From Edaphobacter aggregans (GTDB taxonomy: Bacteria; Acidobacteriota; Terriglobia; Terriglobales; Acidobacteriaceae), in contig NZ_RSDW01000001.1 in the NCBI RefSeq assembly GCF_003945235.1, positions 4,680,001-4,712,000 of the forward strand: DNA of 32,000 nt, in the 5' to 3' direction. The notes below the pieces were generated by a model, which worked only from the letters and a program-made list of their open reading frames with translations, was not told the origin of the DNA and did no database searches. This document shows positions 1 to 25,373 of this stretch, one piece after another (position 1 is the first letter of the stretch; the number at the start of each line of letters is the position of its first letter). Made by a program: the position numbers and the translations under genes.

Positions 1-518
1 GGTGCAGCTACTTCAGCCTCTACAATCAGCACTGGCGCATCCTCGGGTTAGATACGGCGTGGGACGACAATGGACTGAAGGATCCACAAGGCGTCTGGGC
101 TAAAGACCTCGCATCGAGAGACGACCGAAAGCTGCTTTTGCTGAGCCATCATCAGTTGTTCAGCGCTTATGAGAGCACTGGAACGGTGATCGGAACCAAG
201 CTTCGACCGGTGCTCGACACAAACCGCGTTCGCGCCTGGTTTTGGGGTCACGAGCATCGGTGCATGCTGTTCGATGATCATCAGAAGGTTGGATTCGCCC
301 GCTGCATTGGACACGGAGGCGTCCCCGTCTACATGTCGCACAAGCAGAATGACCCATATCCATCCCCGGGCGCTTACGAATACCGCGCCGTGATCGAGAA
401 GGGTCTGGAAAAATGGGCGCTGTTTGGTTTTGTGGTTATCGATTTCGAGGACTCTCGGCTGCACGTGCGTTATATTGACGAGAACGGTTTTCAATACAAG
501 GACGAAAAGATCGAATAA
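1..518 (+). CDS. calcineurin-like metallophosphoesterase, C-terminal portion (5' end outside window)
   Basis: The frame is open from base 3 (CSYFSLYNQHWRILGLDTAWDD...) to TAA 516-518. Motifs LLLLSHHQ, WFWGHEHR and IGHGG fit the distal metal-binding motifs of the metallophosphoesterase fold. Track ORF 138..518 is only the first in-frame Met. Confidence 0.8.
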   Translation, partial: CSYFSLYNQHWRILGLDTAWDDNGLKDPQGVWAKDLASRDDRKLLLLSHHQLFSAYESTGTVIGTKLRPVLDTNRVRAWFWGHEHRCMLFDDHQKVGFARCIGHGGVPVYMSHKQNDPYPSPGAYEYRAVIEKGLEKWALFGFVVIDFEDSRLHVRYIDENGFQYKDEKIE

Positions 519-554
519 CGTCGCAGGCAAGCGGTTCGTCCGCCAGGGAAAGAC

Positions 555-2480
555 ATGAGCACGATCGCCATTTTGAACCCGGAGCAGTCGGCGTGGCTCT
601 TGCGCGAAGCTATCAGTCGCTTTGAAGAGGGGGACGATTCCGAGGCTGTTCTGCTGTTCCATCAGGCGCTCGAGGCGCACTCTGAATTGTCAGACCGGGC
701 AGGCCCCTATCTCGACCTCATCGCGCGACGTTCCGATGAGCTTCTTTTTCTTTATGGTGAAAAACTCTGGAATGCCGCGAACTACAAGGCCGCCTGCACC
801 TGCTTCAACAAGGTAGCAGCTCTGAACGGGAGTCGCCGCGAGGCAGCTCTGAAATATCTGAACCGCGTCGAATGCGTTCCCATCGTCCCTGAGTTCCGCT
901 CGCCCACTAGCGGGGAAGTTAGCGGATCCGTTCACATTCTTGATTCCGTGCTCGAGACACGGCCTGAAGACCTGATCCGGCGCACGCCGCACATGGACGC
1001 GGATTGCCCCTGGCCCGCGGAAGCGGGCATGAGTTTCCTAGTCAGAATATACGCGGACCAATCCGGGGCGCGCCCGGGCGAGGAATCGTCAGATGTTGAG
1101 ATTCGGGCGCGGGGGGACGTCACCGAATTCCCGGTCGATGTAGAACTGCTTGCAACGGAGCATTTCCGGATTGAAGGCAGCAGCACCACGCAAATCATCA
1201 TTTATCGCGGAAGGCCCATGTCCAACTCAGCCGCGTTTACTGTGACGGTGGTCTCTCCGGATGCGGATTCCAAACCGGGTTTGACCGCGCTTTTCAGTTA
1301 CCGGGGACGCCCATCCGGCAAGGTCACCCGCGACTTCCATACCTATGCGGCCGACGTAAAGCCGCGACGTACGGTGCTAGATTTCGACATTATTGCTCGA
1401 CCATCGGGCCTGACCGTCACAATCGTCGCGCAGCCAGCGAATGATGGCCGTCAATACTGGTGTACCGTACGTACTCCATCACTCCTCGAATACGCCGCGG
1501 GTGTTACCGAGGCATGGAATCTCTCCAAAACCTCGCGCGAATTCGTCGGCGACTGCATGATCGACTTTACGGACCAGACCACGAAGCAGCAGCTCATAGC
1601 GACATTAAAAGGTGCGGGACGCGCGCTCTTCAAGGGTTCACCTGCAATCTTTCAGAAAATCTTTTGGGCCCTCATCGATGCTGGCAAACCTCCCCGAAGT
1701 ATCGCGATCGTCTCCGAAGAACCATTCATTCCATGGGAACTGATGCTGCCGCATCGTCAACTCGGCGGCATGCTCCAGAAGCGAGAGCCACTGGGTGTCG
1801 AGTTCCGAATCGGCCGCTGGATCTCGGAAGCCCTAGCGGCACGTCAGGCCGTTCCGATCACCGGAAGTTACGTCATAGCGCCCATCTATCAGGGGCCGCG
1901 CGCCCTTCCTTTCGCTCAGGATGAATCAAGACTTGTCGTCGAGAAATTTGCTGGAAGTGCAATTATCCCAGCGGACTTTGATCACATCAAAGCCGCATTC
2001 GAGGCTGGGGGCCGGACCCTCGTGCACTTCGCATGTCATGGCGTAGATGATCCGATCGATCAGGCGATCTACCTCGATGGCGACGCAAAGCTCAGCGCCA
2101 AAACCTTTGACGGGTTGGACGCGGCGGATACCGCTTTCCAGTCCGCGCACCCCCTTGTATTTCTGAACGCTTGTGAGGCGGGCCGCTTGAAACCGGCGCT
2201 TTCCGGGGTTGGTGGTTTCGCCGCTTCCTTCATCGAAAAAGGCGCCAGCGCCGTGATTGCGCCCCTCTGGAGTGTGAAGGATACTCTTGCTCACGAGATC
2301 GCAACCGGATTCTATGAGAACATCGCGATAAAGCCGTGGGCGGAAATCATGCGCGAGTTCCGAGCTAAAGCTTATGACCCCTCGTTCGCAGAAGATACAT
2401 ATGCCGCCTACTGCTTTTACGGAGATCCGGATGCCGCCCTTGTCGTGCCGAAAGGGTTTATAGCGACGGTCGAACAGTGA
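555..2480 (+). CDS. TPR-like N-terminus + CHAT-domain (caspase-fold) peptidase
   Basis: 641-aa ORF with an AGGGA SD-like element just upstream of ATG 555. The first ~110 aa are helical/TPR-like and the middle is beta-rich. The C-terminal ~270 aa carry an ordered His...Cys dyad, LVHFACHG (His codon 2037-2039) and LVFLNACEAG (Cys codon 2172-2174), followed by GASAVIAPLWSVKD. This is the signature layout of CHAT domains. Confidence 0.85.
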   Translation: MSTIAILNPEQSAWLLREAISRFEEGDDSEAVLLFHQALEAHSELSDRAGPYLDLIARRSDELLFLYGEKLWNAANYKAACTCFNKVAALNGSRREAALKYLNRVECVPIVPEFRSPTSGEVSGSVHILDSVLETRPEDLIRRTPHMDADCPWPAEAGMSFLVRIYADQSGARPGEESSDVEIRARGDVTEFPVDVELLATEHFRIEGSSTTQIIIYRGRPMSNSAAFTVTVVSPDADSKPGLTALFSYRGRPSGKVTRDFHTYAADVKPRRTVLDFDIIARPSGLTVTIVAQPANDGRQYWCTVRTPSLLEYAAGVTEAWNLSKTSREFVGDCMIDFTDQTTKQQLIATLKGAGRALFKGSPAIFQKIFWALIDAGKPPRSIAIVSEEPFIPWELMLPHRQLGGMLQKREPLGVEFRIGRWISEALAARQAVPITGSYVIAPIYQGPRALPFAQDESRLVVEKFAGSAIIPADFDHIKAAFEAGGRTLVHFACHGVDDPIDQAIYLDGDAKLSAKTFDGLDAADTAFQSAHPLVFLNACEAGRLKPALSGVGGFAASFIEKGASAVIAPLWSVKDTLAHEIATGFYENIAIKPWAEIMREFRAKAYDPSFAEDTYAAYCFYGDPDAALVVPKGFIATVEQ

Positions 2481-4558
2481 CAGAAGCGAAAAACAACGGA
2501 CTCAGCGATAGCGTCGCGGCTCTCGATAACAAACTGGCGAGTTCGCAGTTAAAGCCGGAAGACGTCGAGGAGGTCTCCGACCTCCTGACGCCCATCGAGA
2601 GGAAGGTGGCGGCTCTCGATGCGCCGCCGGACGTGCCCGAGTCTCCGGCGGGCAAGCTCTTCAAACTTCTCTGGTGCAAGACCCATCCAGTCGAGGCCGA
2701 CCTCCGGCTCATACTCAGGTTGATGCCAGATTCTTCGCCGCTGGTTCGCTACACCGCGACCCAAGCATTCAAATCCACCCTGGACGTAGCCTTGGATCGC
2801 TGGAGCGATCCAAAATTTTCAATCGCCGCCTCTGAGAGGGTCACGGAGTGCGCCCGACAGGAGTCCTCTCCCCTGATTTCGTACGAACTGGATCAGATAC
2901 GTCCGCGGCTGTTGGACGCCACGCCCAAACGGCGCCGTTCGCGCCCTAAAATGGCGCAGAATCCGTACATCGTCGGACCGCCGATTCGGGATTCGAAGGG
3001 TTTCTTTGGTCGCCAGGACATTCTCGACCGGTTGCGAAAAATGGTGGCCTCGCATGGGGGCATGCGGGCGGCAGTTCTCTATGGGGCTCGCAGAACCGGA
3101 AAGACCTCGATCCTGTTCCGTATCGAGGCGGGCGAGTTCGGCGACTCGGTGGTTCCAGTTTATCTCGACATGCAGGGGGTTGCCGGCTCCCCGCTTGGCA
3201 CGTTTCTCAGGATTCTGGTCCGCGTAATCAGGAAGGCGGCCGCCGATCTCACGGATTTGGCTGTCGGCGATCCCGACGTAATCTCGGTGCGCGAGTATAT
3301 CGAATCCACCCTCCACCGCCTCGGTACCAAATCGCTGCTTCTGCTGATCGATGAATTCGAGTTGCTCGAGGCATATCTCTCTTCAGGCTTTGCCGCTCAA
3401 CTGCAGAGCCTGCTTGATGTCTCGCCCAATCTGTTTATCATATTCGCGGGTTCGCGAAAATTGGAGTCGCTTCGTGGTGGCGCGTTCAGCAATCTGCTGG
3501 ATTCGGCCACTTACATCAAGATCAGTTTCCTCGACCGCAACGATGCAACGCGCATGATTACGGAGCCCATCGGAGACGCTATCTCATTTCCACCGGAGGT
3601 GGTGGAGAAGATCCTCACACTCACGAACGCCCACCCCTTCTACACACAGTTGATGTGTCTGAGTATTTTCGATCTTGCCCTGAAATCCGGGAAGGCGACG
3701 CCGGAGAATGTGGATGAAGCTGTCGGGCGATTCCTCCAGAATCCGGCGCCGCATATGATTCTGACCTGGAATGCCATGCGGCTGGGCGAAGCGGCGGTCG
3801 GTTCCACAGTGGCCCTGCTTCAGTCCGGTGATAGCCAATGGGTCACGCCAATAGTGATTGCCATGCGATTGCACACGGAGCGATTTCCTGTCGATCTTAC
3901 GGCAGCCGATATCCAGCGGGCGCTCGCCTCGTTGTGCGATATCGATTGGATCGAACAGCGGAGAGGAGGCGGCGAATACCGCTTCACCATGGAGCTGGTG
4001 CGGCGTTGGGTATCTGAGAACAGATCTATTTCCTACCTCGCCAGCAAGCATCAGGAGGAACTGGCCGCGAGGGCGGTTGGTTTCTGGAAACAGCGGAGCG
4101 CTTCGCTAATCGACTGGATAGTCTGCGGCCTCCTGATGACCTCCGCTGCGAATGCCACGAGTTGGGATCCCTTCCCGCAAATCCTACTTGCATTCATGGT
4201 GCCGCTCGCATTCCTAATGATTCTGCTTTTTGCAGGACGTGCCACTGCGGGTATGTTCGTCCTTCGGCTCCGCTCTGCCCCTGCGCCCGGGAAGTCGTTG
4301 GGCAAAGGACGTACTGCAATCCTCGGGTTTGCATACACGATCCGCTTCTTCGTCGAATTCGCTCTTTTCAAATTCATCGTGACTTTGCCGCATAGCTGGC
4401 GGTATATTGGCTTCGGCCGTCTTTCGGTTGCGGTGATGCTGGCTGCATTGGTAGCGCTGGATCAGGTCATGATGCTGCGCGGCAGTAGGCATCGAGGGCT
4501 TTACGACAAGATGGCCGGCACAATGGTCGTACCTTCCGAGGCCCTGACATCATGGTGA
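2477..4558 (+). CDS. P-loop NTPase (ORC/Cdc6- or STAND-like, ATPase_2/AAA_35-like) fused to a C-terminal RDD-type membrane domain
   Basis: 693-aa ORF; GTG 2477 overlaps the upstream TGA (GTGA). It carries NPYIVGPP...FFGRQ, Walker A GARRTGKTS (3083-3109) and Walker B LLLLIDEFE (3335-3361). The last ~150 aa contain FWKQRSASLIDWIV, several hydrophobic helices, GRATAGMFVLRLR and a terminal RGLYDKMAGTMVV, which is the RDD-family pattern. Confidence 0.8.
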   Translation: MTEAKNNGLSDSVAALDNKLASSQLKPEDVEEVSDLLTPIERKVAALDAPPDVPESPAGKLFKLLWCKTHPVEADLRLILRLMPDSSPLVRYTATQAFKSTLDVALDRWSDPKFSIAASERVTECARQESSPLISYELDQIRPRLLDATPKRRRSRPKMAQNPYIVGPPIRDSKGFFGRQDILDRLRKMVASHGGMRAAVLYGARRTGKTSILFRIEAGEFGDSVVPVYLDMQGVAGSPLGTFLRILVRVIRKAAADLTDLAVGDPDVISVREYIESTLHRLGTKSLLLLIDEFELLEAYLSSGFAAQLQSLLDVSPNLFIIFAGSRKLESLRGGAFSNLLDSATYIKISFLDRNDATRMITEPIGDAISFPPEVVEKILTLTNAHPFYTQLMCLSIFDLALKSGKATPENVDEAVGRFLQNPAPHMILTWNAMRLGEAAVGSTVALLQSGDSQWVTPIVIAMRLHTERFPVDLTAADIQRALASLCDIDWIEQRRGGGEYRFTMELVRRWVSENRSISYLASKHQEELAARAVGFWKQRSASLIDWIVCGLLMTSAANATSWDPFPQILLAFMVPLAFLMILLFAGRATAGMFVLRLRSAPAPGKSLGKGRTAILGFAYTIRFFVEFALFKFIVTLPHSWRYIGFGRLSVAVMLAALVALDQVMMLRGSRHRGLYDKMAGTMVVPSEALTSW

Positions 4559-5604
4559 AGCGCTTCAGCTTGCCGAATCCCTACACGAATCGGGCAGCCA
4601 TTCGTTCCTCCAACCATTTTTTCGGTCGCGAACTTGATCTTAGGGATATCTATACCAGAATCGCAGGCGGTCAGTCAGTCATGATCACAGGCGAGCGGCG
4701 CATTGGCAAGTCTTCGCTGCTGAACGCGATAGGGTTCTCTCGGGAAGAGTACGAGCTCGATCCGGGATTCGGCTTTATTCTGTTGGACATGCAATCAATC
4801 GCCGGATGCACGGAAGAGGCGTTCGTCGAGAATCTGCTGACTCTTATTTCCCGGGAAATGGGAATAGCCTTACCCGAAATGGGCCGCAGGACTTTGGAGG
4901 ACGCCGCCGAGAGGATCCATTCCCACGGCCGGCGTCTCATTATTGCCCTCGATGAATTCGATGTCCTCGTATGGAATGAAAAGATCTCACCCGAGTTCCT
5001 GGTCGTGCTTCGATCCTGGACAGTACGACATGGATTTCCGTTCGTCGTCGCGTTTCGAGAGGGCTCCATCGACCGTATCGTCAGCGATGAAAAGTTTGGA
5101 TCCGCTTTTCTCAACCTGTTCGGCTCGGTATATGTGGGGCCGCTGCGAGAAGAAGAGGCCAGGGAACTGATACGTACGCCCGCCCGCAATCACGATGTGG
5201 AGTTCACAGACGAGGAAGTGGAAATGGTGCTCGATATTGCCGGCTATTTCCCGCTCTATATACAGATCGCGTGTTATCACCTGTTCGAATTCAAAAAATT
5301 GGGGAAGACAGCGGAAGAGATCGCAGTGCAACTGCCGCGTTCCTTCGCGTTCGAAGCATCCCCTCATTTCGAATACATGTGGTGGCGGCTTAGTCCGCGG
5401 GAGCAGGAAGCCCTGCGCTGGTGGGTGAAAGCCGGAAACACAGAGGATATGGCGGCTGAAAAGGACCTGCTGATGAAAGGCCTCCTGATTGAGGAGCGCC
5501 GCGCCATTCGTATCTCCTGCAGTCTGCTCGGTGAGTGGATGGACAAATGGGAGGCGCCGGCGAAGACTGTCCGGCAGACTGTCAGGGACGCTTTGTTGAT
5601 GTGA
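4552..5604 (+). CDS. P-loop NTPase (same superfamily as the flanking two), stand-alone
   Basis: 350-aa ORF; ATG 4552 overlaps the upstream stop (ATGGTGA). It carries NPYTNR...HFFGRE, Walker A GERRIGKSS (4690-4716) and Walker B LIIALDEFD. The C-terminal part is helical (possible winged helix). Confidence 0.8.
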   Translation: MVKRFSLPNPYTNRAAIRSSNHFFGRELDLRDIYTRIAGGQSVMITGERRIGKSSLLNAIGFSREEYELDPGFGFILLDMQSIAGCTEEAFVENLLTLISREMGIALPEMGRRTLEDAAERIHSHGRRLIIALDEFDVLVWNEKISPEFLVVLRSWTVRHGFPFVVAFREGSIDRIVSDEKFGSAFLNLFGSVYVGPLREEEARELIRTPARNHDVEFTDEEVEMVLDIAGYFPLYIQIACYHLFEFKKLGKTAEEIAVQLPRSFAFEASPHFEYMWWRLSPREQEALRWWVKAGNTEDMAAEKDLLMKGLLIEERRAIRISCSLLGEWMDKWEAPAKTVRQTVRDALLM

Positions 5605-5608
5605 GGCA

Positions 5609-7924
5609 TTGAGGATGGCATCAGTAAGAATGATCTACGATCGCGAGGCGCTGCTAAACACGCTCGAGGCCGAGTGTTTCAGCGACATCGGCGCGAGCGC
5701 CGTCATAATCGGCGGTCACAAGGTCGGCAAGTCCTATCTGCTCGAACATATCCTGACGCGGCCTTCAGATTCATCCGGAAATCTCTATTGCCGTATTAAT
5801 GTGGATCTGCTGAAGGCGTCGGGCAACGGCACGCTGTCCGATCACGTATTTCTGCGGTTCTTTCTGGTCCTTCTACTGCGGCAAATCGACGACCTGCTCG
5901 AACGGCAGAGGGGCGAAGTGACCGAGTGGTCCGGGTTGCTCGCACAGGCCGAGCAAAAGGCGATCGCGCTTGCCGACGTGATGCCTGACCCAGCGATTGA
6001 CGCGATCCGCCTGAGTCAGCTAAACCTCGCGGCCGCTTACCGCAAGAAAATTTCCCAGCGCCAGAACGAAATCGAAGAACTCGCATCGGCGGCGGAAGCT
6101 CTCCGAAGGCTCACAGCTGGCGGAAAACAGGTTGCCGTCGACGAGCTCACCGAGGTGCTGCTGCAGCTCCGCGGGCTGCGCAAGAGAATCATCCTTGTGA
6201 TCGATGACTACGATCACATGGTCAGCCAGCCGGGTTTCACGGATAATCTCTTTTCCTTTCTTCGCGGCGCCAATAACGAGAAGAAAATCATCGCCCTAGT
6301 GAGCTCACATAAGCGCCTGATGGATCTCAAACCGGAAGAACACGGGGCAGGGGGCAAGGAAAGCAGTGCAAACGGCAAATCGCTGGATCGAACGAGCCTC
6401 TTCAATCACTTCCAGATCCAGCGGCTCATTCCTTTCCGCGGAAAGCAACCCGAAGCATTTCTTGAATGGCTGGGGCGTCCGGATGGCGGCGATTCCTTGG
6501 CTCTGGGTGCTGAAGAGAAAAAATATCTTCGCTCGCTCGGTGGTGGCTGCCCTCATTTCCTCCGCTACGCAAGAAGTCTGTACCTTCAAAAGAGGCCGCT
6601 CGAGAACGATGCGGCGCGGCGTCAGTTCGAAAATGACCATCTAGTTGATGAGTTCCATCAAGTTTTCGAGCAGATCTGGACCGGTTGTGACGAGGCCGAG
6701 AGGGCAACGCTGCGAGCCATAGCCGACGGAGCAACCATCGAGCCCGGGTCGGCGGATCGACTCGAAACCGAGGGCTATCTCATGGAGGACGGCCCGTGTC
6801 TGACCATATTTTCGAAGCTTTTCGCCGATTTCATCCGAAAGAAACCCAAGCCCTCCGCCTCAGCTCTGGTAAAACCCGCTACCCCTGAAACCGGCGTCCC
6901 GGAGACGCTCTCGGTGGATGAACCTCTCCGCTTCGAGACGAATATTCCATGGGATGTATTTCCATCCGCCCTCTTCTTCGCGACCGCCGATGCGGCGGCG
7001 AACGTAGGGGAAATCAAAATCGAAAACTGCACAGGGAAGAAAGCTTCCATCGAGGTCACTTGCCAGCTCGGCCCCTGGTCCGAGGTGTCCACCACGGCCG
7101 ACGCGTTTGATCCGGGCCCCAGCCTGCTTCCGCTACAGGTAGATCTCAGAGAGTCGGTCAAGACGATTCGCGACCCTGTCTGGACCCGGGTCGACTATTC
7201 CGTAACGCTCGATCCGGGCGGCGCTAACAGTGTGGCAAAGAAGCGTTTCAAAAAGGTCAGACTGCTGCCTCCCGATCATTTTTTGTTTGCCAGATGGGAT
7301 TCGGTCAGAATGGAACTTGAGGATTTCAGCTGGCTGATATGCGCTTGGGTCAACTCGCAAGAGCCCCGACTCGCGCCCGTGCGCGAACGGGCGCTCGATC
7401 TTTTTCCGCGGCTGGGCGTTCCAACGGAAGCAGTTGGGGATCCCGGGCATTTCGCCCGGCAAAAGGTGGCAGCGATCTATGAGGCACTCCAGGGGCAGAA
7501 AATCCGTTATTTCGATAATGCCGTGGTCTTCCACAGCGGCAACGATCAGTACATGCAGAGAGTGCAGTCCTGCGGGAAAACTATAGAGATCGGGACGGGC
7601 AACTGTCTTGATGGCTCGGTACTGTTCGCCAGTCTGCTGTCGCTTTGCGGCGTCGATCCAGGGATTCTGTTGATGCCGGGCCACGCGATCGCAGCCTGGA
7701 GGGCGCCCGGCGCGGCCGAAAACGATTGGCAATACGTCGATACGACAGGCCTGCCGGGACTGGCATTCGAACAAGCCACCGCACTCGCCACAGCTCGAAT
7801 CGACGAACGGCAGAACGGCGTGCAAATCCTAGCTCCGGCTGCCACGCTTCCGGATCCCGAAAACTTCGCTACTATCGTCGACGTGCACCACACGATCAGA
7901 ACCCGACGCATCGCCCAGATCTGA
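5609..7924 (+). CDS. P-loop NTPase with long helical insert, fused to a C-terminal transglutaminase-like (papain-fold) Cys-His-Asp domain
   Basis: 771-aa ORF from TTG 5609. ATG 5615 with GAGG 8 nt upstream is the more likely start. Walker A is GGHKVGKSY (5711-5737) and Walker B is ILVIDDYDH (6190-6216); they are separated by ~160 aa including a coiled-coil-like stretch. The C-terminus reads GTGNCLDGSVLFASLL...PGHAIAAW...WQYVDTTG (Cys codon 7604-7606, His 7682-7684, Asp 7739-7741), which is the transglutaminase-core order. Confidence 0.75.
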   Translation: MRMASVRMIYDREALLNTLEAECFSDIGASAVIIGGHKVGKSYLLEHILTRPSDSSGNLYCRINVDLLKASGNGTLSDHVFLRFFLVLLLRQIDDLLERQRGEVTEWSGLLAQAEQKAIALADVMPDPAIDAIRLSQLNLAAAYRKKISQRQNEIEELASAAEALRRLTAGGKQVAVDELTEVLLQLRGLRKRIILVIDDYDHMVSQPGFTDNLFSFLRGANNEKKIIALVSSHKRLMDLKPEEHGAGGKESSANGKSLDRTSLFNHFQIQRLIPFRGKQPEAFLEWLGRPDGGDSLALGAEEKKYLRSLGGGCPHFLRYARSLYLQKRPLENDAARRQFENDHLVDEFHQVFEQIWTGCDEAERATLRAIADGATIEPGSADRLETEGYLMEDGPCLTIFSKLFADFIRKKPKPSASALVKPATPETGVPETLSVDEPLRFETNIPWDVFPSALFFATADAAANVGEIKIENCTGKKASIEVTCQLGPWSEVSTTADAFDPGPSLLPLQVDLRESVKTIRDPVWTRVDYSVTLDPGGANSVAKKRFKKVRLLPPDHFLFARWDSVRMELEDFSWLICAWVNSQEPRLAPVRERALDLFPRLGVPTEAVGDPGHFARQKVAAIYEALQGQKIRYFDNAVVFHSGNDQYMQRVQSCGKTIEIGTGNCLDGSVLFASLLSLCGVDPGILLMPGHAIAAWRAPGAAENDWQYVDTTGLPGLAFEQATALATARIDERQNGVQILAPAATLPDPENFATIVDVHHTIRTRRIAQI

Positions 7925-8326
7925 TAATCTCCCGATCTGAATTCAACCCGAACAGATTGCAAATTGACATGAGACCAGTGGCTTTCATTGACTTACTTTG
8001 TATTCAGTTAAAGGGGGCACTTCAAAAAAAGGAAATTTATGTACGTTTAGGGTTGCAGAGGAGCGTCGCGGCTCCAAGAACACCACTCTTATTCGGGGCA
8101 TTTTGGGACGGCTTGTGAGACAGTTCCAAGCCGTGAACCGAGCCGTTTGGCAGTTTCTGAACCTTGTGCTGAAACATTCATTTTCACGAGATAGTGCGGT
8201 TTTGGGCACTTCTTCGCCTCAGAAAATCTTTGAATTCTTCGCCAGCATATCGTTTTTGCCAATAATGCCGTTTATTCGTCAAGGCATTCCTGATGTCTGT
8301 TGACATGAGAGAACACGCGAGATGCA

Positions 8327-9181
8327 TCACTGGGCGGCGAACTTCCCTGCCATGAAATATGAAGGCAGGAGCAATCCGGATAGAAAACCGGTAGCCAGAA
8401 AGTACGCAATGACCACGCCAGCCATGATGAAGTTCGTCTTCTCGTCAGAACTCAACGCCGGCGCCAGGGCGTGACAGAGCTGAGAGAAGTGTTCAGCCAC
8501 TTGGCTTGCCTTGGCAAGGGTAAAGCCAGTTAGCACTTTTCCTAACGTGGAAGCGGACTCGGCAAGCAGGTTCTGATTCTGGTGCGGTGTAGTGTCAACA
8601 CTGGCATCAATTGGCTTTGCGGAACTAGTAGGTGTACCCGACGACGGTGTCGCGGCACGAGGCTTGTTTGCCGTTTGTGCAACCCCGGATGGATAACCGA
8701 ACAACAGACCGAAAAAGCCGCCAATCAGTAGGCAAGCGTTCGCCAGTATGAGAGGCATAGCCCAAGACTTGCAGGCAACAATGAGCAGACCATTACCAAC
8801 GATGACAAAGGTCAAACAATTGAAAGCGATGACATAGCGAACGTTCGCTGGATCAGCGTTTACGGGTCTGAAAGTAAATATGGCCTTTCCAGCCAACGTG
8901 AGAAGCCCAGTGGCCGCAAAGATAGCAATCCAAGTCCGAACACTCTCCGGTGAGAAAAGCACGTCTCGATAGCGGAAAAGCACAAACGCAATTAGGAGAC
9001 CGCTGCAGGTGACTAGTACGTAGGTTAGTGGAGGTTTTAGAGCGGACCAGGAAGCAGCGATTTGCTCCCGCAGTTCACCCGTCTCCCACCGATCCGGCTT
9101 GGAACCGTCCTCGCGCGACTGCTCGGAGTCAGGCGGCGAGGCCTCTTCTGGCCTGTCACGACGATCTTCTTCTGTGGACAT
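8327..9181 (-). CDS. hypothetical polytopic membrane protein (no family recognised)
   Basis: The long ORF starts at TTG 9187 in the track, but ATG 9181 has GAGG 7 nt upstream. It has an acidic/charged N-terminus (STEEDRRDRPEE...), ~5-6 hydrophobic helices, a Pro/Ser/Thr-rich linker and a final helix. Confidence 0.6.
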   Translation of the reverse strand: MSTEEDRRDRPEEASPPDSEQSREDGSKPDRWETGELREQIAASWSALKPPLTYVLVTCSGLLIAFVLFRYRDVLFSPESVRTWIAIFAATGLLTLAGKAIFTFRPVNADPANVRYVIAFNCLTFVIVGNGLLIVACKSWAMPLILANACLLIGGFFGLLFGYPSGVAQTANKPRAATPSSGTPTSSAKPIDASVDTTPHQNQNLLAESASTLGKVLTGFTLAKASQVAEHFSQLCHALAPALSSDEKTNFIMAGVVIAYFLATGFLSGLLLPSYFMAGKFAAQ

Positions 9182-9476
9182 GGTCAAACCTCACGGAGCA
9201 GGATCACTAAGGGGAAGGACGAATAATTGCACGACCCATGGGTCTCTGCCAACAGATATTTGCGAACACCCCAAGGGTCGTATCAGAATACGAAATTAGA
9301 GCACGGTAGGCTGAATTTTTTAGCTTCGAAAGCTACATAACTTTCCGGGGCCCCAAAATGTCGCATATGCATCAGACTGTGCCGTATCGATCTTTCATGT
9401 CTGGCGGGAGTAATAATTCGATGCGCTGCTTCCGACAGCGATCACTCTGACAGAAGCTTGCTCGAGAAGAAGTGTT

Positions 9477-9680
9477 AGGCTGACCCGCCACAGGCAGCCC
9501 TTTGCCCACGGTTGAGAATTTGGTGCCAATTTGGTGCCAAATCTAACCCGGAATACCGGTTTATACCGACTTTACCGGCTTATAACCTCTTTACGATGTG
9601 CAGCCGACCGATTCGTCGCCATTCACACGGTGGAAGTCGTAGGTTCGAATCCTGCTGTGCCCACCATATAATCAACAACT
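9477..9680 (+). repeat. att-like repeat module, copy 1 (hairpin + tandem 11-mers + tRNA 3' fragment)
   Basis: By eye this is ~80% identical to 25168-25373 over the left ~100 nt. Shared elements include tandem ATTTGGTGCCA x2 (9518-9539), GAATACCGGTTT and ACCGGCTTATAACC. It then carries a 45-nt perfect match (9622-9666) and a shared TCAACAACTTAG just after the CCA. Confidence 0.85.
9622..9666 (+). other. tRNA 3' fragment (parses as tRNA-Val, anticodon CAC); candidate att core
   Basis: The sequence is TTCACACGGTGGAAGTCGTAGGTTCGAATCCTGCTGTGCCCACCA. Read back from the CCA it gives discriminator A, acceptor 3' strand TGTGCCC, T-arm GTAGG/TTCGAAT/CCTGC, variable AAGTC, anticodon-stem 3' strand GGTGG and loop TTCACAC. 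No GGGCACA 5' acceptor strand or D-arm lies upstream, so it is not a full gene. Confidence 0.7.
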
Positions 9681-9735
9681 TAGAGCAAACACGACGGAAA
9701 GCCGCCACGCCACACCACGCCACACTCAGGCTAAA

Positions 9736-10956
9736 TTATTCAATCAATGTGAGATCCCGCGATCCATGGATTACTGGTGGAAGCGGTTCAGGGCTCTCAG
9801 CGAAGAGACATTCGACGACCCGTTTTTGCGCTTGCCGCTTCGCGACTAATCGGGCCTGCGTGTAAAGATCCAGCGTCGTCCAGGCTTTCGCATGCCGCAT
9901 GAGTTCCTGCACCACTTTGACGTTCTCGCCATTCCCAACCAAAAGAGTCGAGTATGTGTGCCGGAAGGTATGCCATCCTACTTTCTTGCAAATACCTGCC
10001 CGAACGGCTGCGGGTTGAATAATCTTTGCCAGCACCGTTCCAGGCCAATACGGATCCTTCCCGCTCTTATGAGGACTGGCAAAGATCCAATTCTCCGAGT
10101 TGCAATGTCTGGTCGTCTCTTTCCACAGCCAGAGATCAGCGGCCACTCGTTCATCCAAGGGCATTGGTTTGCGCGAGGTTTCTGTCTTGCAATTGCCGAT
10201 GATGCCGTGATAAACGGAGCGCTGAATCGAGATCACTAGATCAGAGAAGTTGACATCGCCCCACCTCAGAGCAAAGAGTTCGCTTCGCCGCATGCCCGTG
10301 GTAACGGCCAACTCGACCATCAGGCGAAAACAAGGTTGCAACTGCGAAAGGATGGCCCGAATCTCTTCTGATTCGAGAACCATGGGTACTTTCTTACGTC
10401 TCGCACTCTGCCGAACGAACGTAATGGGATTCCGGCCCTGTTCGAGCCACTCGCAGCGGATTGCATGATTGAAGAGCACACTGAAGATATTGCGGATCTT
10501 CCCCTTCGTTGCATCTGCTAAGGGGCCGCCATCTGCTCGTCGCAGCCCTCTGAGCCAGTGTTCCACGGCCAGAGTCCGAACCGAATGGAGAGCTATCTCG
10601 CCCCAGCCAGGTCGAATCTACCTATCTAGAAAATAGAGGTAGATCGTCCTTGTCGCGTGAGAGTGCCAGCCAGTGTCCGCGGAGAGATCGGTATGCACGT
10701 AATGATCGATCAAATCCCGAATGGGAATGGGTTTACCCGAATAGTGATTTCGACTGCCGTTCAGATACACTCTCAAACCATTTGCTGCTGTCCAAGCGAG
10801 TTCTTCGGTTGGGTATTGCTCGACCGTTCCGACGATAGCCGTGCGATGGACTCGTCTTCCCCTCTCGTCCGTCTCCCGCCAAAGAAACTCCCATACATGT
10901 GGTCCCGATTTCCGTCGTGCGCGACGAAGATGCCCCGTCTGATAGCGTTGGCTCAC
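9736..10956 (-). pseudogene. tyrosine recombinase/phage integrase interrupted by one in-frame TAG
   Basis: Track ORFs 10618..11007 and 9736..10566 are in the same frame. Translating across the gap gives ...IYLYFLDR*IRPGWGEIALHSVRTLAVEHWLRGL..., with TAG at 10618-10620 (codon 113 from GTG 10956). Catalytic motifs are present downstream (TGMRRSEL, WHTFRHTYST, LMRHAKAWTTLDLYTQ). The likely start is GTG 10956, with AGGAGG 7 nt upstream. Confidence 0.8.
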
Positions 10957-10960
10957 TGAG

Positions 10961-10981
10961 TACCCTCCTGTAAGGAGGGTA
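10961..10981 (-). promoter_or_regulatory. perfect 9-bp stem hairpin that includes the integrase Shine-Dalgarno
   Basis: TACCCTCCT-GTA-AGGAGGGTA. On the mRNA strand the 3' arm AGGAGGGUA is the SD of the GTG at 10956. Confidence 0.5.
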
Positions 10982-11287
10982 GTAGCAACCCTTGCAGAGG
11001 TCCGCAATTAGGGTTTCGTTTGGAAAAGGGATACCTGATCGAGCACCTTTGCAACAGTTGAAGAAAGTGAGACTATGGCGCAAGCGACGTGGCTCCGTAG
11101 GGACCTACAGCCAGAGAGAATAGGGATTACTTCCGAGAAGCCGACTTCCGGGTAATGATTTAGTGTCAATGAGTGTAGTTGGCGATTTATCACTCACTGA
11201 GAGCTCAAACGAACTTCTAACCTCCGTTTAACTGAAAACGGAATTCAAACAACCTTTAGTCAATTTAAGAGCGACGTGTTGGTTGGG

Positions 11288-11872: not shown

Positions 11873-11880
11873 CGCTCCTC

Positions 11881-14800
11881 CTATTGAACGGTGAGAGTTA
11901 CAGTGCTGCTGTTCGCCACACTTCCGCTGGTGGCGGTGATAGTGATTGTGTAGGTCTGCTGGGGCTGGTTGAAGTAACCTCCCGATCCGCAGCCCGAGAT
12001 AGCTCCAGAGGATGTCAAGCCAAGCAGCAGCCACAGCAGCAGCCGTGGTGGCCTTGCTCGGGTTCGCCTCAAAAATGCAAGAGGCAATAGCAATACTGCA
12101 AGTGCGAACGGCGTCTTCGAGATGCGGCGCAACGCTGCACTCTGTTTGGGCACGTTGACGGTGAAGGTGGAAGTTGCTGCAGCGGAGCCGGGAGTCAGGA
12201 TGGGGGGTGCGAAGGAGTAGCTTGAGCCAGGCGGTAAATTCGTCGCCGTCAGTGTGACCACATTGTTGAAGGCACCGTTTACGGGGGTGACGGTGATGCT
12301 GTAGCTCGCCGACGCTCCTGGAGGAATCAACTGCGGTCCCGTAGTCGAGGCAACGGTGAAGGTAGGCTGAGTGCCGCCTACTGTCTGTACTACCTGAGAG
12401 ACAGCACTTGAAGTAGCGCCGTTATAGGTTGCATCACCGCTATACACCGCTGTGATCGAATGGGTTCCCACGGACAGCGTCGTGGTCGACAAACTCGCCG
12501 TGCCGCCGGACACTGTCCCGGCGCCCAGCACCGTCATTCCGTCAAGAAACTGTACCGTGCCTGTCGATCCGGCAGGTACCGTCGCGGTGAAGGTTACGGA
12601 ACTGCCCGATGGTACTGGGTTGCGCGACGATGCCAGGGTCACGGTCGCCGCAGTTTTGTTCACTACCTGCGAGAGCGCCGGAGAAGTCACACCGTTGTAG
12701 TTCCCATCACCGTTATACGTCGCCGTGACCGAGTGTGTTCCTACCGATAGCGTCGAGGTCGAGAAACTCGCCGTGCCGCTGGACACTAGCCCGGTGCCCA
12801 TCACCGTTGTTCCATCCATGAAGGTTACCGTTCCGGTGGCGCCTGCGGAGAGCGTCGCGGTGAACGTCACTGATGCCGCAGGCGTCGATGGATTCTGTGA
12901 GGAGGCCACCGCCACCGACGGAGTTCCCTTGCTTACCGTCAGGATGCCGTTCACGAAAGCGATCGAGTAATTGGGAGAACTGAGACCTCCGATAATCGAT
13001 ATCGGATAAGTTCCCACCGGAGATGTCACCGTCGCGGTCGTCGAATAGACCGGCACGCCGGTCACTGCCGTGGAATATGTGTCGCCGTTGACCAGTGTGC
13101 CCGTCACGGTATAGCTGAACGCCGGGTTACCCTGCCCATACTGGCGACTTGCGTTCGTCACCGTAACTGTAAGCGCCGCTCCACCGTTCGGACCAGTTCT
13201 CGGTGTCACGATTGCGGTCACCGGTGAGCTCGTACTTGCCGCATAGTTCCCGTCGCCCTCATAGGACGCCGTGATAGTGTTTGTGCCCGCACTCAGTGCC
13301 GAGGTGGATAACGTCGCGGTCCCGCCCGATACCGCAGCAGTGCCCAGCACCGTGGAGCCTTTAGAGAAGACGACTGTTCCGGTCGCGCCGCTCGCAGCGA
13401 CCGTCGCGGTCAGAGTGAGCGGATCGCCGTACTGCGTCGAGGTCGCGCTCGTGGTCAACGTCGTCGTTGTGGCGGCGGTCACGATCGTCAAGGTTCCAGG
13501 AACAGTGGTTAGCGTGTAGTTCTGACTCGCCAGCCCGCTTACGTTGATCGGGAAGGTCGAACCTACTGGAGAGTTCGGAGAGCCCGCCACACTGTAAACC
13601 GGAACTCCGGTCACCGCCGTGGCATACGTATCTCCGTTTAACAGCGTGCCCGAAACAATATAGGAAAACTCAGGATTCGCGGTTCCGTACTCACGGCTTT
13701 CATTTAACACCGTCACGGTCAGCGCGGGCGCTCCACCCGCAGCAGTCTTCTTCGCCACCGTCACCGTCGTTGGCTCGCTCATGCTGCTTGCATAAGTCGC
13801 ATCACCGTTATAGGTCGCCGTGATCGTATGCGTGCCCGCATTCAATGTCGTCGTACTCAGGGCCGCAACACCACCGGTTACCGTGCCCTGGCCCAGATAC
13901 ACCGAACCGTCGTAGAAGCTCGCCGTACCCGTTGCGCCTGAGGTGACCGTTGCCGTCAGGGTCACCCGATCACCGTACTGCGATGAGTTCGGAGAGGCTG
14001 CCAGCGTCGTCTTCGACGAGGACGGCACCACCGTCAAAGTGCCGGGAACGAACGCAAGCACATAGTTTTGGCTGGTCAGCCCCGACACCGTAATCTCAAA
14101 GGTGCCCGTCGTCATTCCGGCGGTCGTTGAGTAAGTCGGCGTGCCTGTCACTGCGGTGGCATAGGTATCACCGTTGACCAGCTCGCCCGCAACCGTATGG
14201 CTGAACGGCGGGTTCGCCTCTGTCGTCGTTCGCGATGCATCGTTGACCGTCACGGTCAACGATGCTCCCCCACTAGTGCCCGTCCGTTGCGTCACCGTCA
14301 GTGTCACCGGGTTGCTCGTGCTCGCAGGAAAACTCAAGTCCCCGTTATAGGTAGCCGTGATCGTATGCGTCCCCGCGTTCAGTGTGCTGACTGATAGCAC
14401 CGCCGTAGCACTGCTATCCAACGACGACGTGCCCAGCAGGGTGGTGCCCTCGTGGAAGCTCACCGTGCCCGTTGCCCCGGCGGTAGGCCCGACGACTGCC
14501 GTCAGTACCGCAGGATTCCCATACATCACCGTTGTGGGGTTCACGCTCAGCGTCGTCGTCTCTCCTGCCGCTGGTGTTACTGTTAGTGTGCCGTTGACGT
14601 AGGTGAAGATGTAGTTGTTGTTCGTGGCAAGGTCTCCAGGAGCCGCAGTGATGGGATATGTCCCTGCAGGGGAGACCGTCGTTGCCGTCGTCGTCAGGCT
14701 TGGTGATCCCGTAACCACCGACTCCTGCGTGTCGCCGTTCGCAAACCCGATCATCGTGCTGGTGAAGGGGGGATCTGGGGTTCCGTAAGGACGGCTGGCG

Positions 14801-17800
14801 TCGTTCGCCGTCACGGTCAGCGTCGCCTGGTTCACGACCTGCGTCAGTACGGACGAAGTCGCTCCGTTGTAGTTACTGTCTCCGCTGTACACCGCGATAA
14901 TCGGATGCGTACCCGCAACCAACGTTGAGGTCGTGAAGGTGACCGTAATGCCGGAGATCGGCACCGCACTGCCGATCTCCGTGCCGTTATCCTCGAAGGT
15001 CACCGTCCCCGTGGCACCCGACGGAACCGTCGCCGTAAAGATCACAGAACTCCCGTAGCTCGATGGATTCAGCGAGGATGCTACCGTCACGGTCGGAGTT
15101 CCCTTGCTTACGGTCAGGGTACCGTTCACGAAAGCGAGCGAGTAGTTCGCCGAGTTTAGACCTCCGGTAATCGATACCGGATAAGTTCCCACCGGCGCGG
15201 TCACCGTTGCGGGCGTAGAGTAGACGGCCACGCCGGTCACTGCCGTGGCATACGTGTCCCCATTGACGAGCGTGCCCGAGACGCTATAGCTGAACGCCGG
15301 GTTACCCTGCCCATACTGACGACTTGCGTCCGTCACCATAACTGTAAGGGCTGCCACGCCCCCCGGACCGGTTCTCTTTACCACGGTTACGGTCACCGCT
15401 GAACTCGTACTTTCCGCATAGTTCCCGTCGCCCTCATAGGACGCCGTGATGGTGTATGTTCCCACACTCAGCGCCGAGGTCGACAACGTCGCTGTCCCGC
15501 CAGATACCGTACCGGTGCCCAGCGCCGTGGAGCCGCTAGAAAAGACGACCGTTCCGGTCGCGCTACTCGGACCTACCGTTGCCGTCAGCGTAACCGGATC
15601 GCCATATTGCGTCGAGGTCACGCTCGTAGTCAGCGCAGTCGTTGTGGGGGCAGTCACGATCGTCAGGGTTCCAGGAACAGTGGTCAGCGTATAGTTTTCG
15701 CTCACCAGACCGCTTACGTTGATGGGGAAGGTCGAACCCACCGGAGAGGTCGGAGTGTCCGTCGAAGTATAGACCGGAACTCCGGTCACCGCCGTAGCAT
15801 ACGTATCTCCGTTCACCAGCGTGCCCGAAACGATATACGCAAACTCCGGATTCGCGGTCCCATACTCACGGCTTGCGTTTTCAACCGTCACCGTCAGCGC
15901 GGGACCTCCACCGGCAGCCGTCTTCTTGGCCACAGTCACCGTCGCTGGCCCGCTCGTGCTGCTGGCATACGTAGCGTCGCCGTTGTAGATCGCCGTGATC
16001 GTATGCGTTCCTGCATTCAATGTTGTCGTGATCAATGTCGCCACGCCGCCGGTGACCGTGCCCTCGCCCAGAAACACCGAACTATCATAGAAACTCGCAG
16101 TGCCCGTTGCGCCTGATGTGACCGTCGCCGTCAGCGTCACTGGACCGCCGTACTGCAATGAGTTCGGAGAGGCTGTCAGCGTCGTCGTCGACGAGGACGG
16201 CACCACCGTCAAAGTGCCAGGAACGAACGCAAGCGTATAGTTTTGGCTCGTCAGTCCCGACAGCGTAATCTCAAAGGTGCCCGCCGTCGTTCCGGCGGTT
16301 GTCGAATAAGTCGGCGTGCCCGACACCGCGGTGGCATAGGTATCACCGTTGACCAGCTCGCCCGCCACCGTGTGGCTGAATGGCGGGTTCGCCTCGGTCG
16401 TCGTCCGCGTCGCATCGTTGACCGTCACGGTCAATGCAGCTCCCCCGCCCGGCGCGGTCCGCTGCGTCACCGTCAGGGTCACCGGGTTGCTCGTGCTCGC
16501 AGGAAAGTTCACATCCCCGTTATAGGTCGCCGTGATCGTATGCGTGCCCACGTTCAGTGTGCTCACTGGCAGCACCGCCGTAGTACTGCCATCCAGCGAC
16601 GACGTCCCCAGCAGGGTGGTGCCCTCGTGGAAGCTCACTGTGCCCGTGGCCCCAGACGGAGGTCCCACGACCGCCGTCAGTACCGCAGGGTCCCCATACA
16701 TCGCCATCGCCGGGCTCACACTCAGTGTCGTCGAAGGCCCGGTCGTTGCCATGTTCACTGTCTGCGTCAGTACGAGTGAAGTCGTTCCGTTGTAGTTCGT
16801 GTCTCCGCTGTACACCGCGGTGATCGCATGCGAACCCGCCACCAGCGTCGAGATCGCGAAGGCGGCCGTGGTGCCGGAGATCGGCACTGCACCGCTGATC
16901 GCCGTGCCGTTATCCTCGAAGGTCACCGTCCCCGTGGCGCCCGCCGGAACCGCCGCCGTCAAGGTTAATGAAGTGCCGTAGGTCGATGGGTTCAGAGAGG
17001 AGGCAAGAGTGACGGTCGGGATCGCCTTGTTCACCACCTGGGATACCGGCGTTGACACCGCGGCGGTGTAGTTGGCATCCCCGCCGTATTGCGCGGTGAT
17101 CGAGTGCGTGCCCACTGCCAGCGAACTGGTCGCCAGAGTGGCGACGCCACTGTTGATCGTCCCCGTGCCGAGGGACGTCGTGCCGTCCTCGAAGGTCACC
17201 GTTCCGGTGGCTCCGGACGTGACCGTCGCCGTAAGAGTCACGCCAGTACCGAAAGTCGAGGGGTTCAGCGAGGTAGCCAGAGCGACAGTGCTGGACGCCT
17301 TGTTCACCACCTGGGACAGTACGGACGAAGTTGCTCCGTTGTAGTTCGTGTCTCCACCGTACTGCGCCGTGATCGAGTGCGTTCCCGCTGCAAGCGAACT
17401 GGTCGTCAGGCTGGCGACGCCACTGCTAATCGTCCCTGTGCCAAGGGACGTTGCGCCGTCGTCGAAGGTCACTATCCCGGTGGCTTCGGACGGGACCGTC
17501 GCCGTGAGAGTCGCGCTCACACCGAAGGTCGATGGGTTTAGAGAGGAAGCCAAAGTGACGGTCGGGCTCGCCTTGTTCACAATCTGGGATACCGCCGTGG
17601 AGGCGGCGGTGGTGTAGTTGGTATCTCCTCCATACTGCGCCGTGATCGAGTGCGTGCCTGCTGCAAGCGAGCTAATCGTCAGCGTAGCGCCGCCGCCGCT
17701 AATCGCTCCCGTCCCAAGGGACGTTGCGCCGTCGTCGAAGGTCACTGTCCCGGTGGCTCCGGACGGGACCGTCGCCGTGAGAGTCACGCTCACACCGAAG

Positions 17801-25160: not shown

Positions 25161-25191
25161 AAAAAAAGGGCCGATCCGCCACGGTCGGCCC
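25161..25191 (-). terminator. rho-independent terminator-like hairpin (reads on the minus strand)
   Basis: GGGCCGA-N10-TCGGCCC, a perfect 7-bp GC-rich stem at 25168-25191. It is preceded on the plus strand by A7 (25161-25167), giving a T7 tail on the minus strand. It lies ~125 nt downstream of the integrase stop and upstream of the giant-gene leader. Confidence 0.6.
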
Positions 25192-25373
25192 TGCCCACTG
25201 GTTAGAAATTTTGGTGCCATTTTGGTGCCAAATATAGCCCAGAATACCGGTTTTCGGACACTCGACCGGCTTATAACCCTTTTAGAATCAAAATCCGGCT
25301 ACTTCTAGGACACCTTCACACGGTGGAAGTCGTAGGTTCGAATCCTGCTGTGCCCACCAATCCTTTCAACAAC
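25168..25373 (+). repeat. att-like repeat module, copy 2
   Basis: This is the counterpart of 9477-9680. It carries tandem TTTTGGTGCCA x2 (25209-25230), GAATACCGGTTT, ACCGGCTTATAACC, the identical 45-mer at 25315-25359 and then TTCAACAACTTAG. Confidence 0.85.
25315..25359 (+). other. tRNA 3' fragment (tRNA-Val CAC-like), identical to 9622-9666; candidate att core
   Basis: 45/45 identity with copy 1. In this copy the preceding CACC also pairs with GGTG (anticodon stem), but no D-arm or 5' acceptor strand lies upstream. Confidence 0.7.

Follow-up and report, generated by a model that had tools for sequence, protein, structure and literature searches.

The window analysed here is a stretch of 32,000 nucleotides from Edaphobacter aggregans (Acidobacteriota; contig NZ_RSDW01000001.1, positions 4,680,001 to 4,712,000 of the forward strand), and its first 7,924 nucleotides carry five genes, here called g1 to g5. 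The products of g2, g4 and g5 are 100% identical to NCBI entries for this species. We found that these genes form one conserved, probably translationally coupled operon composed of two modules. The first module pairs a predicted metallophosphoesterase (g1) with a CHAT protease (g2), and the second consists of three adjacent paralogous genes for predicted STAND-type ATPases (g3, g4 and g5), two of which end in an additional domain. The operon is real, conserved and unnamed; it is built from families that have already been predicted to act in bacterial conflict and is not a categorically new kind of system. We favor, with moderate confidence, the view that the block is a composite ATP-regulated conflict system, probably directed against phages or mobile elements. 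The signs that suggest defence are the sharing of domains with immune-type proteins, a patchy and mobile distribution, and the plasmid context of the first module.

The five genes are conserved as one operon

A preliminary description of the window had proposed five tightly packed genes on the same strand, and the coordinates and junctions of the open reading frames (ORFs) confirmed this arrangement (Table 1). The start of g5 is ambiguous. Its longest ORF begins at the TTG at 5609 and encodes 771 residues; the alternative ATG at 5630 gives the NCBI product of 764 residues with a 25-nt gap after g4, and the orthologs align from about there.

Loci carrying the block were gathered from the contexts of CHAT homologs, from a metagenome scan with a g5 alignment, and from look-ups of g4 homologs. 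The gene order g1-g2-g3-g4-g5 was identical in the window and in loci L002, L007, L089 (identical to L095) and L094. At L091 the contig is cut within g2, and L013 has no g1 and a split g2. The fragments L088, L090, L092 and L093 and one JGI contig showed the same order as far as each reaches. The CHAT gene lay directly upstream of g3 in all seven distinct loci that could be assessed. With the exception of L013, g1 was present at these loci or the contig was cut before it (six of seven), and g1 was the first gene of the block. An arrangement shared by seven distinct loci with g5 identities of 34-76% is far from what chance would give; the block is conserved as a unit. The junction between g2 and g3 is a 4-nt overlap in the window and in L007, and the two genes are spaced by 9-53 nt elsewhere.

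The members of the g4 and g5 families with enough flanking sequence were all inside the block (6/6 metagenome matches and 3/3 look-ups). The block is rare. An exhaustive search of 1.84 billion representatives gave about two dozen full-length g5 relatives, and the hosts of the block are Acidobacteriota wherever the taxonomy is known. The genes downstream of g5 differ between loci; therefore, the operon ends at g5. The promoter and terminator scan was uninformative, as terminator-like sites were fewer than in shuffled sequences.

Two block loci deserve separate mention. At L013 (9848-17453), in an Acidobacteriota metagenome-assembled genome, the CHAT gene is divided into two ORFs, no phosphoesterase gene lies within 10 kb, and g3-g5 are intact. 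This block is either a decaying copy or the product of long-read frameshift errors. At L089 (9304-9864; L095 9319-9882), g5 is followed on the same strand by a gene for a DUF4231 protein with two predicted transmembrane (TM) helices, which the other loci do not have. DUF4231 is a relative of the SLATT family, the membrane effectors in conflict systems based on nucleotide signalling.

Table 1. Positions of the operon genes, predicted catalytic centres and neighbouring features in the window
Feature	Position	Strand	Description
g1	1..518	+	Partial metallophosphoesterase (predicted), 3' part, 171 aa of ~473 aa; 5' end beyond the window edge
g2	555..2480	+	CHAT protease, 641 aa; 36-nt gap after g1
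g2 catalytic dyad region	2025..2183	+	HFACHG, residues 491-496 (H491/H495); FLNACEAG, residues 536-543 (C540)
g3	2477..4558	+	Predicted STAND-type ATPase, 693 aa; 4-nt overlap with g2
g4	4552..5604	+	Predicted minimal STAND ATPase, 350 aa; 7-nt overlap with g3
g5	5609..7924	+	Predicted divergent STAND-type ATPase, 771 aa from TTG; 4-nt gap after g4
g5 tail, predicted catalytic centre	7598..7750	+	GNCLDGS (C659), PGHA (H685), VDTT (D704)
Multi-TM protein	8327..9187	-	286 aa
att-like module, copy 1	9480..9666	+	Arm with TTTGGTGCCAA twice, then perfect 38-nt core 9629-9666
Tyrosine (phage-type) integrase	9736..11007	-	Probable pseudogene
4161-aa protein	11881..24366	-	Cargo of the att-bounded element
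att-like module, copy 2	25173..25359	+	83% identical to copy 1; core 25322-25359 identical

The CHAT protease and its phosphoesterase partner

The g2 protein matched the Pfam CHAT family (PF12770) with 68.3 bits (cut-off 24, E = 1e-18). Its predicted catalytic residues H491, H495 and C540 are invariant in 26 homologs. The AlphaFold2 (AF2) model of g2 reached a predicted local distance difference test (pLDDT) score of 84.8 and a predicted template modelling (pTM) score of 0.75. In this model, residues 9-107 form a TPR-like helical N-terminus, residues 139-322 two β-sandwich domains and residues 323-630 the caspase-fold CHAT module. Foldseek returned Csx29/TPR-CHAT first (E = 4e-11), then separase and DdvA, with a probability of 1.00. 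The g2 family has a constant core of β-sandwich and CHAT domains behind a variable N-terminus, and its members are predicted cytoplasmic proteases. No homolog of the CHAT protein was found in the phage collection.

The g1 fragment in the window scored 307 bits against a hidden Markov model (HMM) of its orthologs, over positions 304-473. Against Pfam Metallophos (PF00149), the truncated fragment scored 20.6 bits and a full-length ortholog 43.9 bits (cut-off 21.5). The metal-ligand motifs GDWG, GDvYY, GNHD, HH and GHEH (GDxG/GDxxY/GNHD/HH/GHxH) are kept in 32 orthologs, and the seven metal ligands of the phosphoesterase are intact. Among solved structures, purple acid phosphatases are the closest (E = 6e-4). 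By its sequence, g1 is predicted to be a calcineurin-like metallophosphoesterase of the purple-acid-phosphatase type. The CHAT and metallophosphoesterase assignments of the preliminary description are both upheld by these profile scores.

A scan of one genome per GTDB species gave 170 relatives of the CHAT protein, spread over Acidobacteriota, Proteobacteria, Actinomycetota, Verrucomicrobiota, Gemmatimonadota and Planctomycetota. The pairing with a phosphoesterase was counted in 54 non-redundant close relatives, 51 of which could be assessed. A g1-type phosphoesterase gene stood immediately upstream on the same strand in 35 of the 51; the rest comprised one fusion, two cases with a phosphoesterase gene nearby on the opposite strand and 13 without a phosphoesterase. 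Metallophos-CHAT fusions were seen in L003, P0030 and P0031. The metallophosphoesterase is therefore the tightest partner of the CHAT gene, and the earlier suggestion that the upstream gene belongs to the set proved correct.

In relatives that lack a phosphoesterase, its place is often taken by another enzyme at the N-terminus, which may be a Ser/Thr kinase, DUF7379 or a GMC oxidoreductase. Predicted conflict systems show this combination of a constant protease with a variable effector (PMC7159879). The more general lead from this work is the widespread pair of phosphoesterase and CHAT genes.

Individual fusions at the N-terminus include a Ser/Thr protein kinase (L037:7108-9975) and DUF7379 (L014:8372-11554 and L016:1940-5125). 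Other CHAT homologs carry a GMC oxidoreductase (P0021), Cpn60 (P0048) or a cold-shock domain (P0053).

Three adjacent paralogous STAND-type ATPases

The motifs quoted for these proteins in the preliminary description, as well as those of the g2 dyad, were all present at their places. Among the three proteins, g4 gave the clearest profile matches: 55.7 bits against Pfam nSTAND1 (PF20703, cut-off 27.1) and 44.9 bits against nSTAND2 (PF20702, cut-off 24). Its Walker A (GERRIGKSS, residues 47-55), its Walker B (LIIALDEFD, 129-137) and an REG motif are invariant in 6-7 orthologs. Beyond the ATPase, g4 has a winged helix and no extra domain. A PDB sequence search with g4 returned nothing useful.

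The g3 protein scored below the cut-off for each of Pfam ATPase_2, AAA_22, AAA_16 and nSTAND1 (nSTAND-type score 19.6). It is a clear paralog of g4, with 27% identity and E = 2e-19. Its architecture comprises a conserved helical N-terminal region (1-160), the NPY...FFGR motif, the ATPase, a winged-helix region and a probable C-terminal RDD domain (~535-690). The Walker A (GARRTGKTS, 203-211), the Walker B (LLLLIDEFE, 287-295) and a sensor-1-like GSR (325-327) are kept in 6 orthologs. The preliminary description had called the tail an RDD membrane domain. This call is probable. The window protein itself is below threshold for RDD (PF06271; 16.2 bits, cut-off 24.1), and RDD matches are on record for the g3 orthologs in L002 and L007, with a weak one in L094. 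The tail has hydrophobic segments at 564-598 and 643-669 and a conserved RQGLYDK-type motif. We predict that it is a multi-TM RDD membrane domain and a putative membrane anchor.

The g5 protein is divergent. It scored below the cut-off of Pfam ATPase_2 and nSTAND2 (19.5). It is a distant paralog, with a BLAST E value of 0.018, and g4 and g5 matched each other by HMM at 1e-7 to 1e-17. Its Walker A is GGHKVGKSY, with the lysine at residue 34 of the 764-aa product, and its Walker B is ILVIDDYDH, and a coiled-coil hairpin is inserted between the two. The ATPase is followed by a winged helix, an Ig-like β-sandwich (~433-546) and a C-terminal domain (~560-764).

Several features are common to the trio. 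The NPY...FFGR(Q/E) motif is shared by g3 and g4, with IYDRE in g5. Walker A and Walker B are intact in all three ATPases and in every ortholog (6-7 orthologs per gene). In each gene, the series GxxxxGK[ST], hhhhD[ED] and then a GSR, (F/S)RE or TSR-type motif is kept. We read the SR/TSR-type motif after the Walker B strand as the sensor 1 of STAND proteins. By sequence relationship, g3, g4 and g5 are predicted to be adjacent paralogous STAND-type ATPases. The earlier NTPase assignment of all three is sustained, here as STAND-type ATPases: g4 exceeds the nSTAND1 and nSTAND2 cut-offs, and g3 and g5 lie below them but are paralogs of g4.

The tail of g5 resembles a thiol enzyme

The C-terminal domain of g5 contains a predicted Cys-His-acid centre (Table 1). 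C659 and H685 are invariant in 7 orthologs; among 26 members of the wider family, the Cys and His vary little or not at all, and the third residue is D or E ([ED]TT motif). In the AF2 model, C659 starts a helix (659-672), H685 starts a strand (685-691), and D704 comes after a strand (701-703). Because the Cys is at the N-terminus of a helix and the His and the acid are on the following strands, the topology of the modelled tail is papain/transglutaminase-like. The model is modest, with a pLDDT of 67 and with residues 626-657 below pLDDT 50. Foldseek matched its ATPase to ORC2 and its sandwich to Ig/MG domains; the C-terminal catalytic domain was not recovered with this low-confidence model.

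In sequence searches the tail had no Pfam match, and a PDB sequence search with g5 gave nothing. The weak matches were to Transglut_core2 (E = 0.006) in homolog P0196 and to a transglutaminase-like chain in the PDB (E = 0.5 over the Cys motif). The transglutaminase-like nature given to the tail in the preliminary description thus agrees with its motif and topology but has no significant profile or fold match. Motif and model together make the tail a probable papain/transglutaminase-like thiol enzyme domain.

The same domain occurs on proteins of immune type. Other proteins carry it in fusion with TIR+SIR2 or with NACHT(+FGE-sulfatase), and it is N-terminal on the NACHT proteins P0191 and P0196. 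In addition, the C-terminal 300 residues of g5 aligned to positions 12-309 of the NCBIfam model NF058533, 'anti-phage protein ProA' (59.8 bits, E = 9e-17), and the L007 ortholog also matched this profile.

A widespread pair acquired the ATPase trio once

In a neighbour-joining tree of the CHAT genes, those that bear the trio form one clade, and L001, which has the pair without the trio, is nested inside it. The trio is confined to one CHAT clade; therefore, a widespread two-gene module appears to have acquired the ATPase trio once. The preliminary description had presented the whole as an undescribed architecture. It is indeed an unnamed and conserved operon, but one composed of a widespread phosphoesterase-CHAT pair and a trio added on a single occasion.

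Given this history, we asked how well the data fit two independent systems that are neighbours without being coupled, namely the phosphoesterase-CHAT pair and a three-ATPase system with its own RDD and thiol-enzyme effectors. The pair is autonomous in most genomes, NTPase operons with g3-like and g4-like genes and no CHAT gene exist (L096 and L097), the L001 pair stands alone within the trio clade, and the trio at L013 has no g1. This explanation is nevertheless improbable in our estimate. No g4 or g5 family member was seen apart from a CHAT gene, g2 is directly upstream of g3 at 7/7 loci, and the two genes overlap or lie close together at their junction. Moreover, the trio-bearing CHAT genes form one clade, which implies that the modules have been co-inherited down to 34% identity.

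The two operons without a CHAT gene show other combinations of this NTPase family. The operon at L096 (2780-8806) contains genes for a DUF5683 protein and for three NTPases: a g3-like ATPase whose tail is of the PEGA/β-sandwich type, a minimal nSTAND2 protein, and a fusion of nSTAND2 to PP2C (SpoIIE). A fusion of nSTAND2 to a σ54 activator is encoded ~5 kb downstream (14275-15806). The L096 fusions show that members of this NTPase family are also joined to signalling outputs. At L097, an Ank-g3-like ATPase gene and an nSTAND2-cyclase fusion adjoin IS66.

Mobile elements and genomic context

Transposases or IS66 flank the block in L007 and L094. Contextual evidence for an immune role of the pair comes from a plasmid. 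On pTiCFBP5877 (L098, NZ_CP039902.1, positions 695-13950), a conjugative Agrobacterium Ti plasmid, a metallophosphoesterase gene and a CHAT gene overlap by 4 nt. The genes clustered with this pair encode HTH-HipA, a winged helix-turn-helix protein, a caspase-family protein, two proteins with TIR domains and two further CHAT proteins. The cluster looks like an uncharacterised immune island. In Rhizobium leguminosarum, a phosphoesterase-CHAT pair is found inside a similar TIR/caspase cluster.

To the right of the operon, the att-like module noted earlier near position 9477 is real. It is a direct repeat of ~190 nt in two copies (Table 1), and its perfect 38-nt core, GGTGGAAGTCGTAGGTTCGAATCCTGCTGTGCCCACCA, is tRNA-3'-end-like. 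In the window, no intact tRNA, no tmRNA and no Rfam family were found. The two cores bracket a 15.7-kb element. The possibility that the block lies inside this att-bounded element was rejected, since the interval that the cores enclose, 9629-25359, begins only after the block on its right side. Because the arm at core 1 resembles the arm at core 2, the region to the left of core 1 may be an older tandem element.

The integrase gene of the att-bounded element has a single in-frame stop that divides it into two ORFs of one frame, 129 and 276 residues long; the gene is a probable pseudogene, so the element is likely immobilised. The cargo of the element is the 4161-aa protein. Its N-terminus holds a signal or TM segment and its C-terminus a TM segment, and it has dozens of Ig-like repeats as well as YVTN-type β-propeller repeats; the G+C content of the gene (~0.60) is above that of the gene's flanks. 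Between the operon and the att module lies the gene of the 286-aa multi-TM protein, where the local G+C is low (~0.50). This protein had no match in Pfam, PADLOC or NCBIfam and no counterpart beside the block in the other loci.

The preliminary description had also placed the block in a mobile, defence-island setting. The mobile part is supported by the att repeats, the integrase, and the insertion sequences (IS) or transposases at L007 and L094. The defence-island part found no support for the block: the neighbours are not defence-specific and the att element excludes the block. The 42 neighbouring ORFs at five block loci (~10 kb) had no defence-specific PADLOC match, and only a generic Ser/Thr kinase and TPR repeats were returned.

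This context also bears on two further roles: the block might serve a mobile element for addiction or stabilisation, or it might be a toxin system used between bacteria. We consider either very improbable. The block is close to the att/integrase element and to IS elements, and HipA toxin-antitoxin genes adjoin the pair on the Ti plasmid, which would suit such a role. However, the block has no secretion signal, no Rhs/PAAR, no type VI or type VII secretion system marker and no small antitoxin-like gene. The att-bounded element excludes it, and the phage collection holds no homolog.

Proposed function and its alternatives

In the conflict system that we favor, g3, g4 and g5 would assemble at the membrane as an ATP-dependent hetero-oligomer that serves as both sensor and switch, with g3 anchoring the complex through its RDD domain. 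Upon a trigger, the hetero-oligomer would activate or recruit the CHAT protease. The protease might then cleave proteins of the cell or the invader, free the enzymatic tails, or do both. The phosphoesterase, the thiol enzyme and the membrane domain could subsequently act as further effectors, and the infected cell would arrest its growth or die, an outcome of the abortive-infection type.

Several observations weigh against a role in defence. The lack of a match in PADLOC and NCBIfam speaks for novelty, yet it also means that there is no independent defence call. The neighbours of the block include no known defence genes and are mostly regulators, peptidases and metabolic genes, and several phosphoesterase-CHAT pairs sit among ordinary genes. 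The parts are separable, as the pair occurs without the trio at L001 and the trio without the phosphoesterase at L013. The transglutaminase-like assignment of the g5 tail lacks a significant profile or fold match. Finally, ordinary signal transduction also makes use of STAND ATPases and of their PP2C or cyclase fusions.

An alternative is housekeeping or stress signalling coupled to regulated proteolysis, in which the STAND ATPases would be membrane signal integrators of the MalT/AfsR type placed over a CHAT protease and a protein phosphatase. The cell's own proteins would then be remodelled, for example in envelope stress, starvation or development. The gene neighbourhood is suggestive in this respect: two-component regulators, σ54 activators, extracytoplasmic function (ECF) sigma factors, kinases and metabolic genes surround the block, and no known defence gene does. 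Outputs that are classic for signalling, namely PP2C phosphatases and nucleotide cyclases, occur in fusion with relatives of g4. The kinase-CHAT fusions and the proximity of g1 to purple acid (protein) phosphatases point to phospho-signalling, and CHAT also functions in DdvA, an anti-sigma factor that matches g2 in structure. A housekeeping role fits less well, however, with a block that is rare, patchy and associated with mobile elements, or with a pair that is carried on a conjugative plasmid among TIR and caspase genes. In addition, the g5 tail domain is common to TIR-SIR2 proteins, NACHT proteins and an NCBIfam anti-phage protein, and the enzymatic domains vary rapidly on a constant protease core. 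On balance, we regard signalling as unlikely. If it were the correct explanation, STAND ATPases would here govern regulated proteolysis at the membrane, which would be unusual.

Should the conflict function be correct instead, the block would be a new multi-effector defence system from Acidobacteria, a phylum almost unexplored for defence. The phosphoesterase-CHAT pair would be flagged as a candidate immune module, and caspase-fold proteolysis would be tied to phospho-ester chemistry outside CRISPR type III. A stronger, two-part claim can be put forward only tentatively. Its first part is that the pair of purple-acid-phosphatase-like phosphoesterase and β-sandwich-CHAT protease is a widespread, unrecognised immune module, present in about 170 species representatives of at least six phyla, in which a kinase or other enzymes can replace the phosphoesterase. 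Its second part is that in Acidobacteriota this module is controlled by a membrane-anchored hetero-oligomer of three catalytically competent STAND paralogs. The two parts are possible, but that both hold is doubtful. If they did, bacteria would have in this operon an equivalent of the plant networks of sensor and helper NLRs, with four effectors: a protease, a phosphoesterase, a thiol enzyme and a membrane domain. The set of three paralogs, all with intact active sites, may offer a tractable bacterial model for heteromeric NLR-type switches.

Comparison with known systems

The preliminary description recognised no named system in the block, and we found none. PADLOC-DB v2.0.0 gave nothing for g1, g2 and g3; the remaining matches were weak, at the level of the P-loop, to mad8 (22 and 17 bits) and GajA. 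No system model of NCBIfam (June 2026) matched above threshold. Membership in MADS, which the mad8 matches could suggest, was rejected, as these matches (17-22 bits) cover the P-loop region and the other mad genes are missing. Searches of the literature found no paper with both CHAT and metallophosphoesterase, and looser searches returned irrelevant papers.

With ProA (NF058533, 1903 aa), the block shares one domain, that of g5, and the 59.8 bits of the match compare with a cut-off of 1500. The literature searches gave nothing relevant on ProA as an anti-phage protein; the name comes from NCBIfam only.

Csx29, the TPR-CHAT protease of the type III-E CRISPR Craspase, resembles g2 in having a helical TPR-like N-terminus followed by a CHAT domain with a His-Cys dyad. 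However, the identity is 12-16%, the NCBIfam Csx29 model scored 14.8 bits (cut-off 300), and g2 has two β-sandwich domains where Csx29 has none. The partners also differ, being a phosphoesterase and STAND ATPases in the case of g2 and an RNA-guided effector in Craspase. No cas-type family was found in the block and the scanned neighbouring ORFs, a result obtained without a separate search for CRISPR arrays.

The bacterial NLR-like, Avs and NACHT proteins likewise join a STAND ATPase, as an ATP-dependent switch, to effectors, and the g5 tail domain occurs on NACHT proteins. They are single polypeptides with C-terminal repeat sensors (TPR, WD40, LRR, FGS). In contrast, the block has three short paralogs without repeat sensors, one of which is predicted to be membrane-anchored, and encodes the protease and the phosphoesterase in separate genes. 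No Avs or bNACHT model in PADLOC matched the block proteins.

The EACC1/EACC2-caspase systems and the VMAP ternary systems (PMC7159879, PMC8195603) have in common with the block a constant caspase-fold protease and highly variable enzymatic domains. Proteolytic release of effectors is predicted in both cases, and both have calcineurin-type phosphoesterases among the effectors. The block differs in having neither the single-TM EACC1 partner nor the MoxR-vWA pair, and it places the variable domain either ahead of the protease in the same polypeptide or in a gene of its own upstream. Membership in the EACC1 system was rejected for want of the single-TM EACC1 partner. As far as term searches of PMC7159879 and PMC8195603 show, the pairing of phosphoesterase and CHAT is not described there.

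The trio comes closest to the nSTAND2 operons of Kaur et al. 2021 (PMC8195603), mobile multi-paralog operons that were predicted to be a counter-invader 'two-gene system' (Fig. 6C of that paper). In those operons, one nSTAND2 paralog has eroded NTP-binding motifs, is inactive and carries an effector (GT4 or HEPN). Both sets consist of adjacent paralogous NTPases of the nSTAND1/2 type with variable fused domains and a mobile, patchy distribution; g4 passes both nSTAND cut-offs, and pairs of g3-like and g4-like genes recur in L096 and L097. The novelty that might be claimed for the trio is thereby reduced, given that multi-paralog nSTAND2 operons had been predicted before and relatives exist in these two loci, but the three-paralog set with RDD and thiol-enzyme tails is different. 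There are three paralogs here and two there, and Walker A and B are kept in all three. The fused domains are RDD and a probable thiol-enzyme domain rather than GT4 or HEPN. Moreover, the trio is always accompanied by the CHAT protease and usually by the phosphoesterase, on both of which the description in PMC8195603 is silent. Taken together, these comparisons place the block, as a candidate variant, among the NTPase-regulated conflict systems with a caspase-fold protease.

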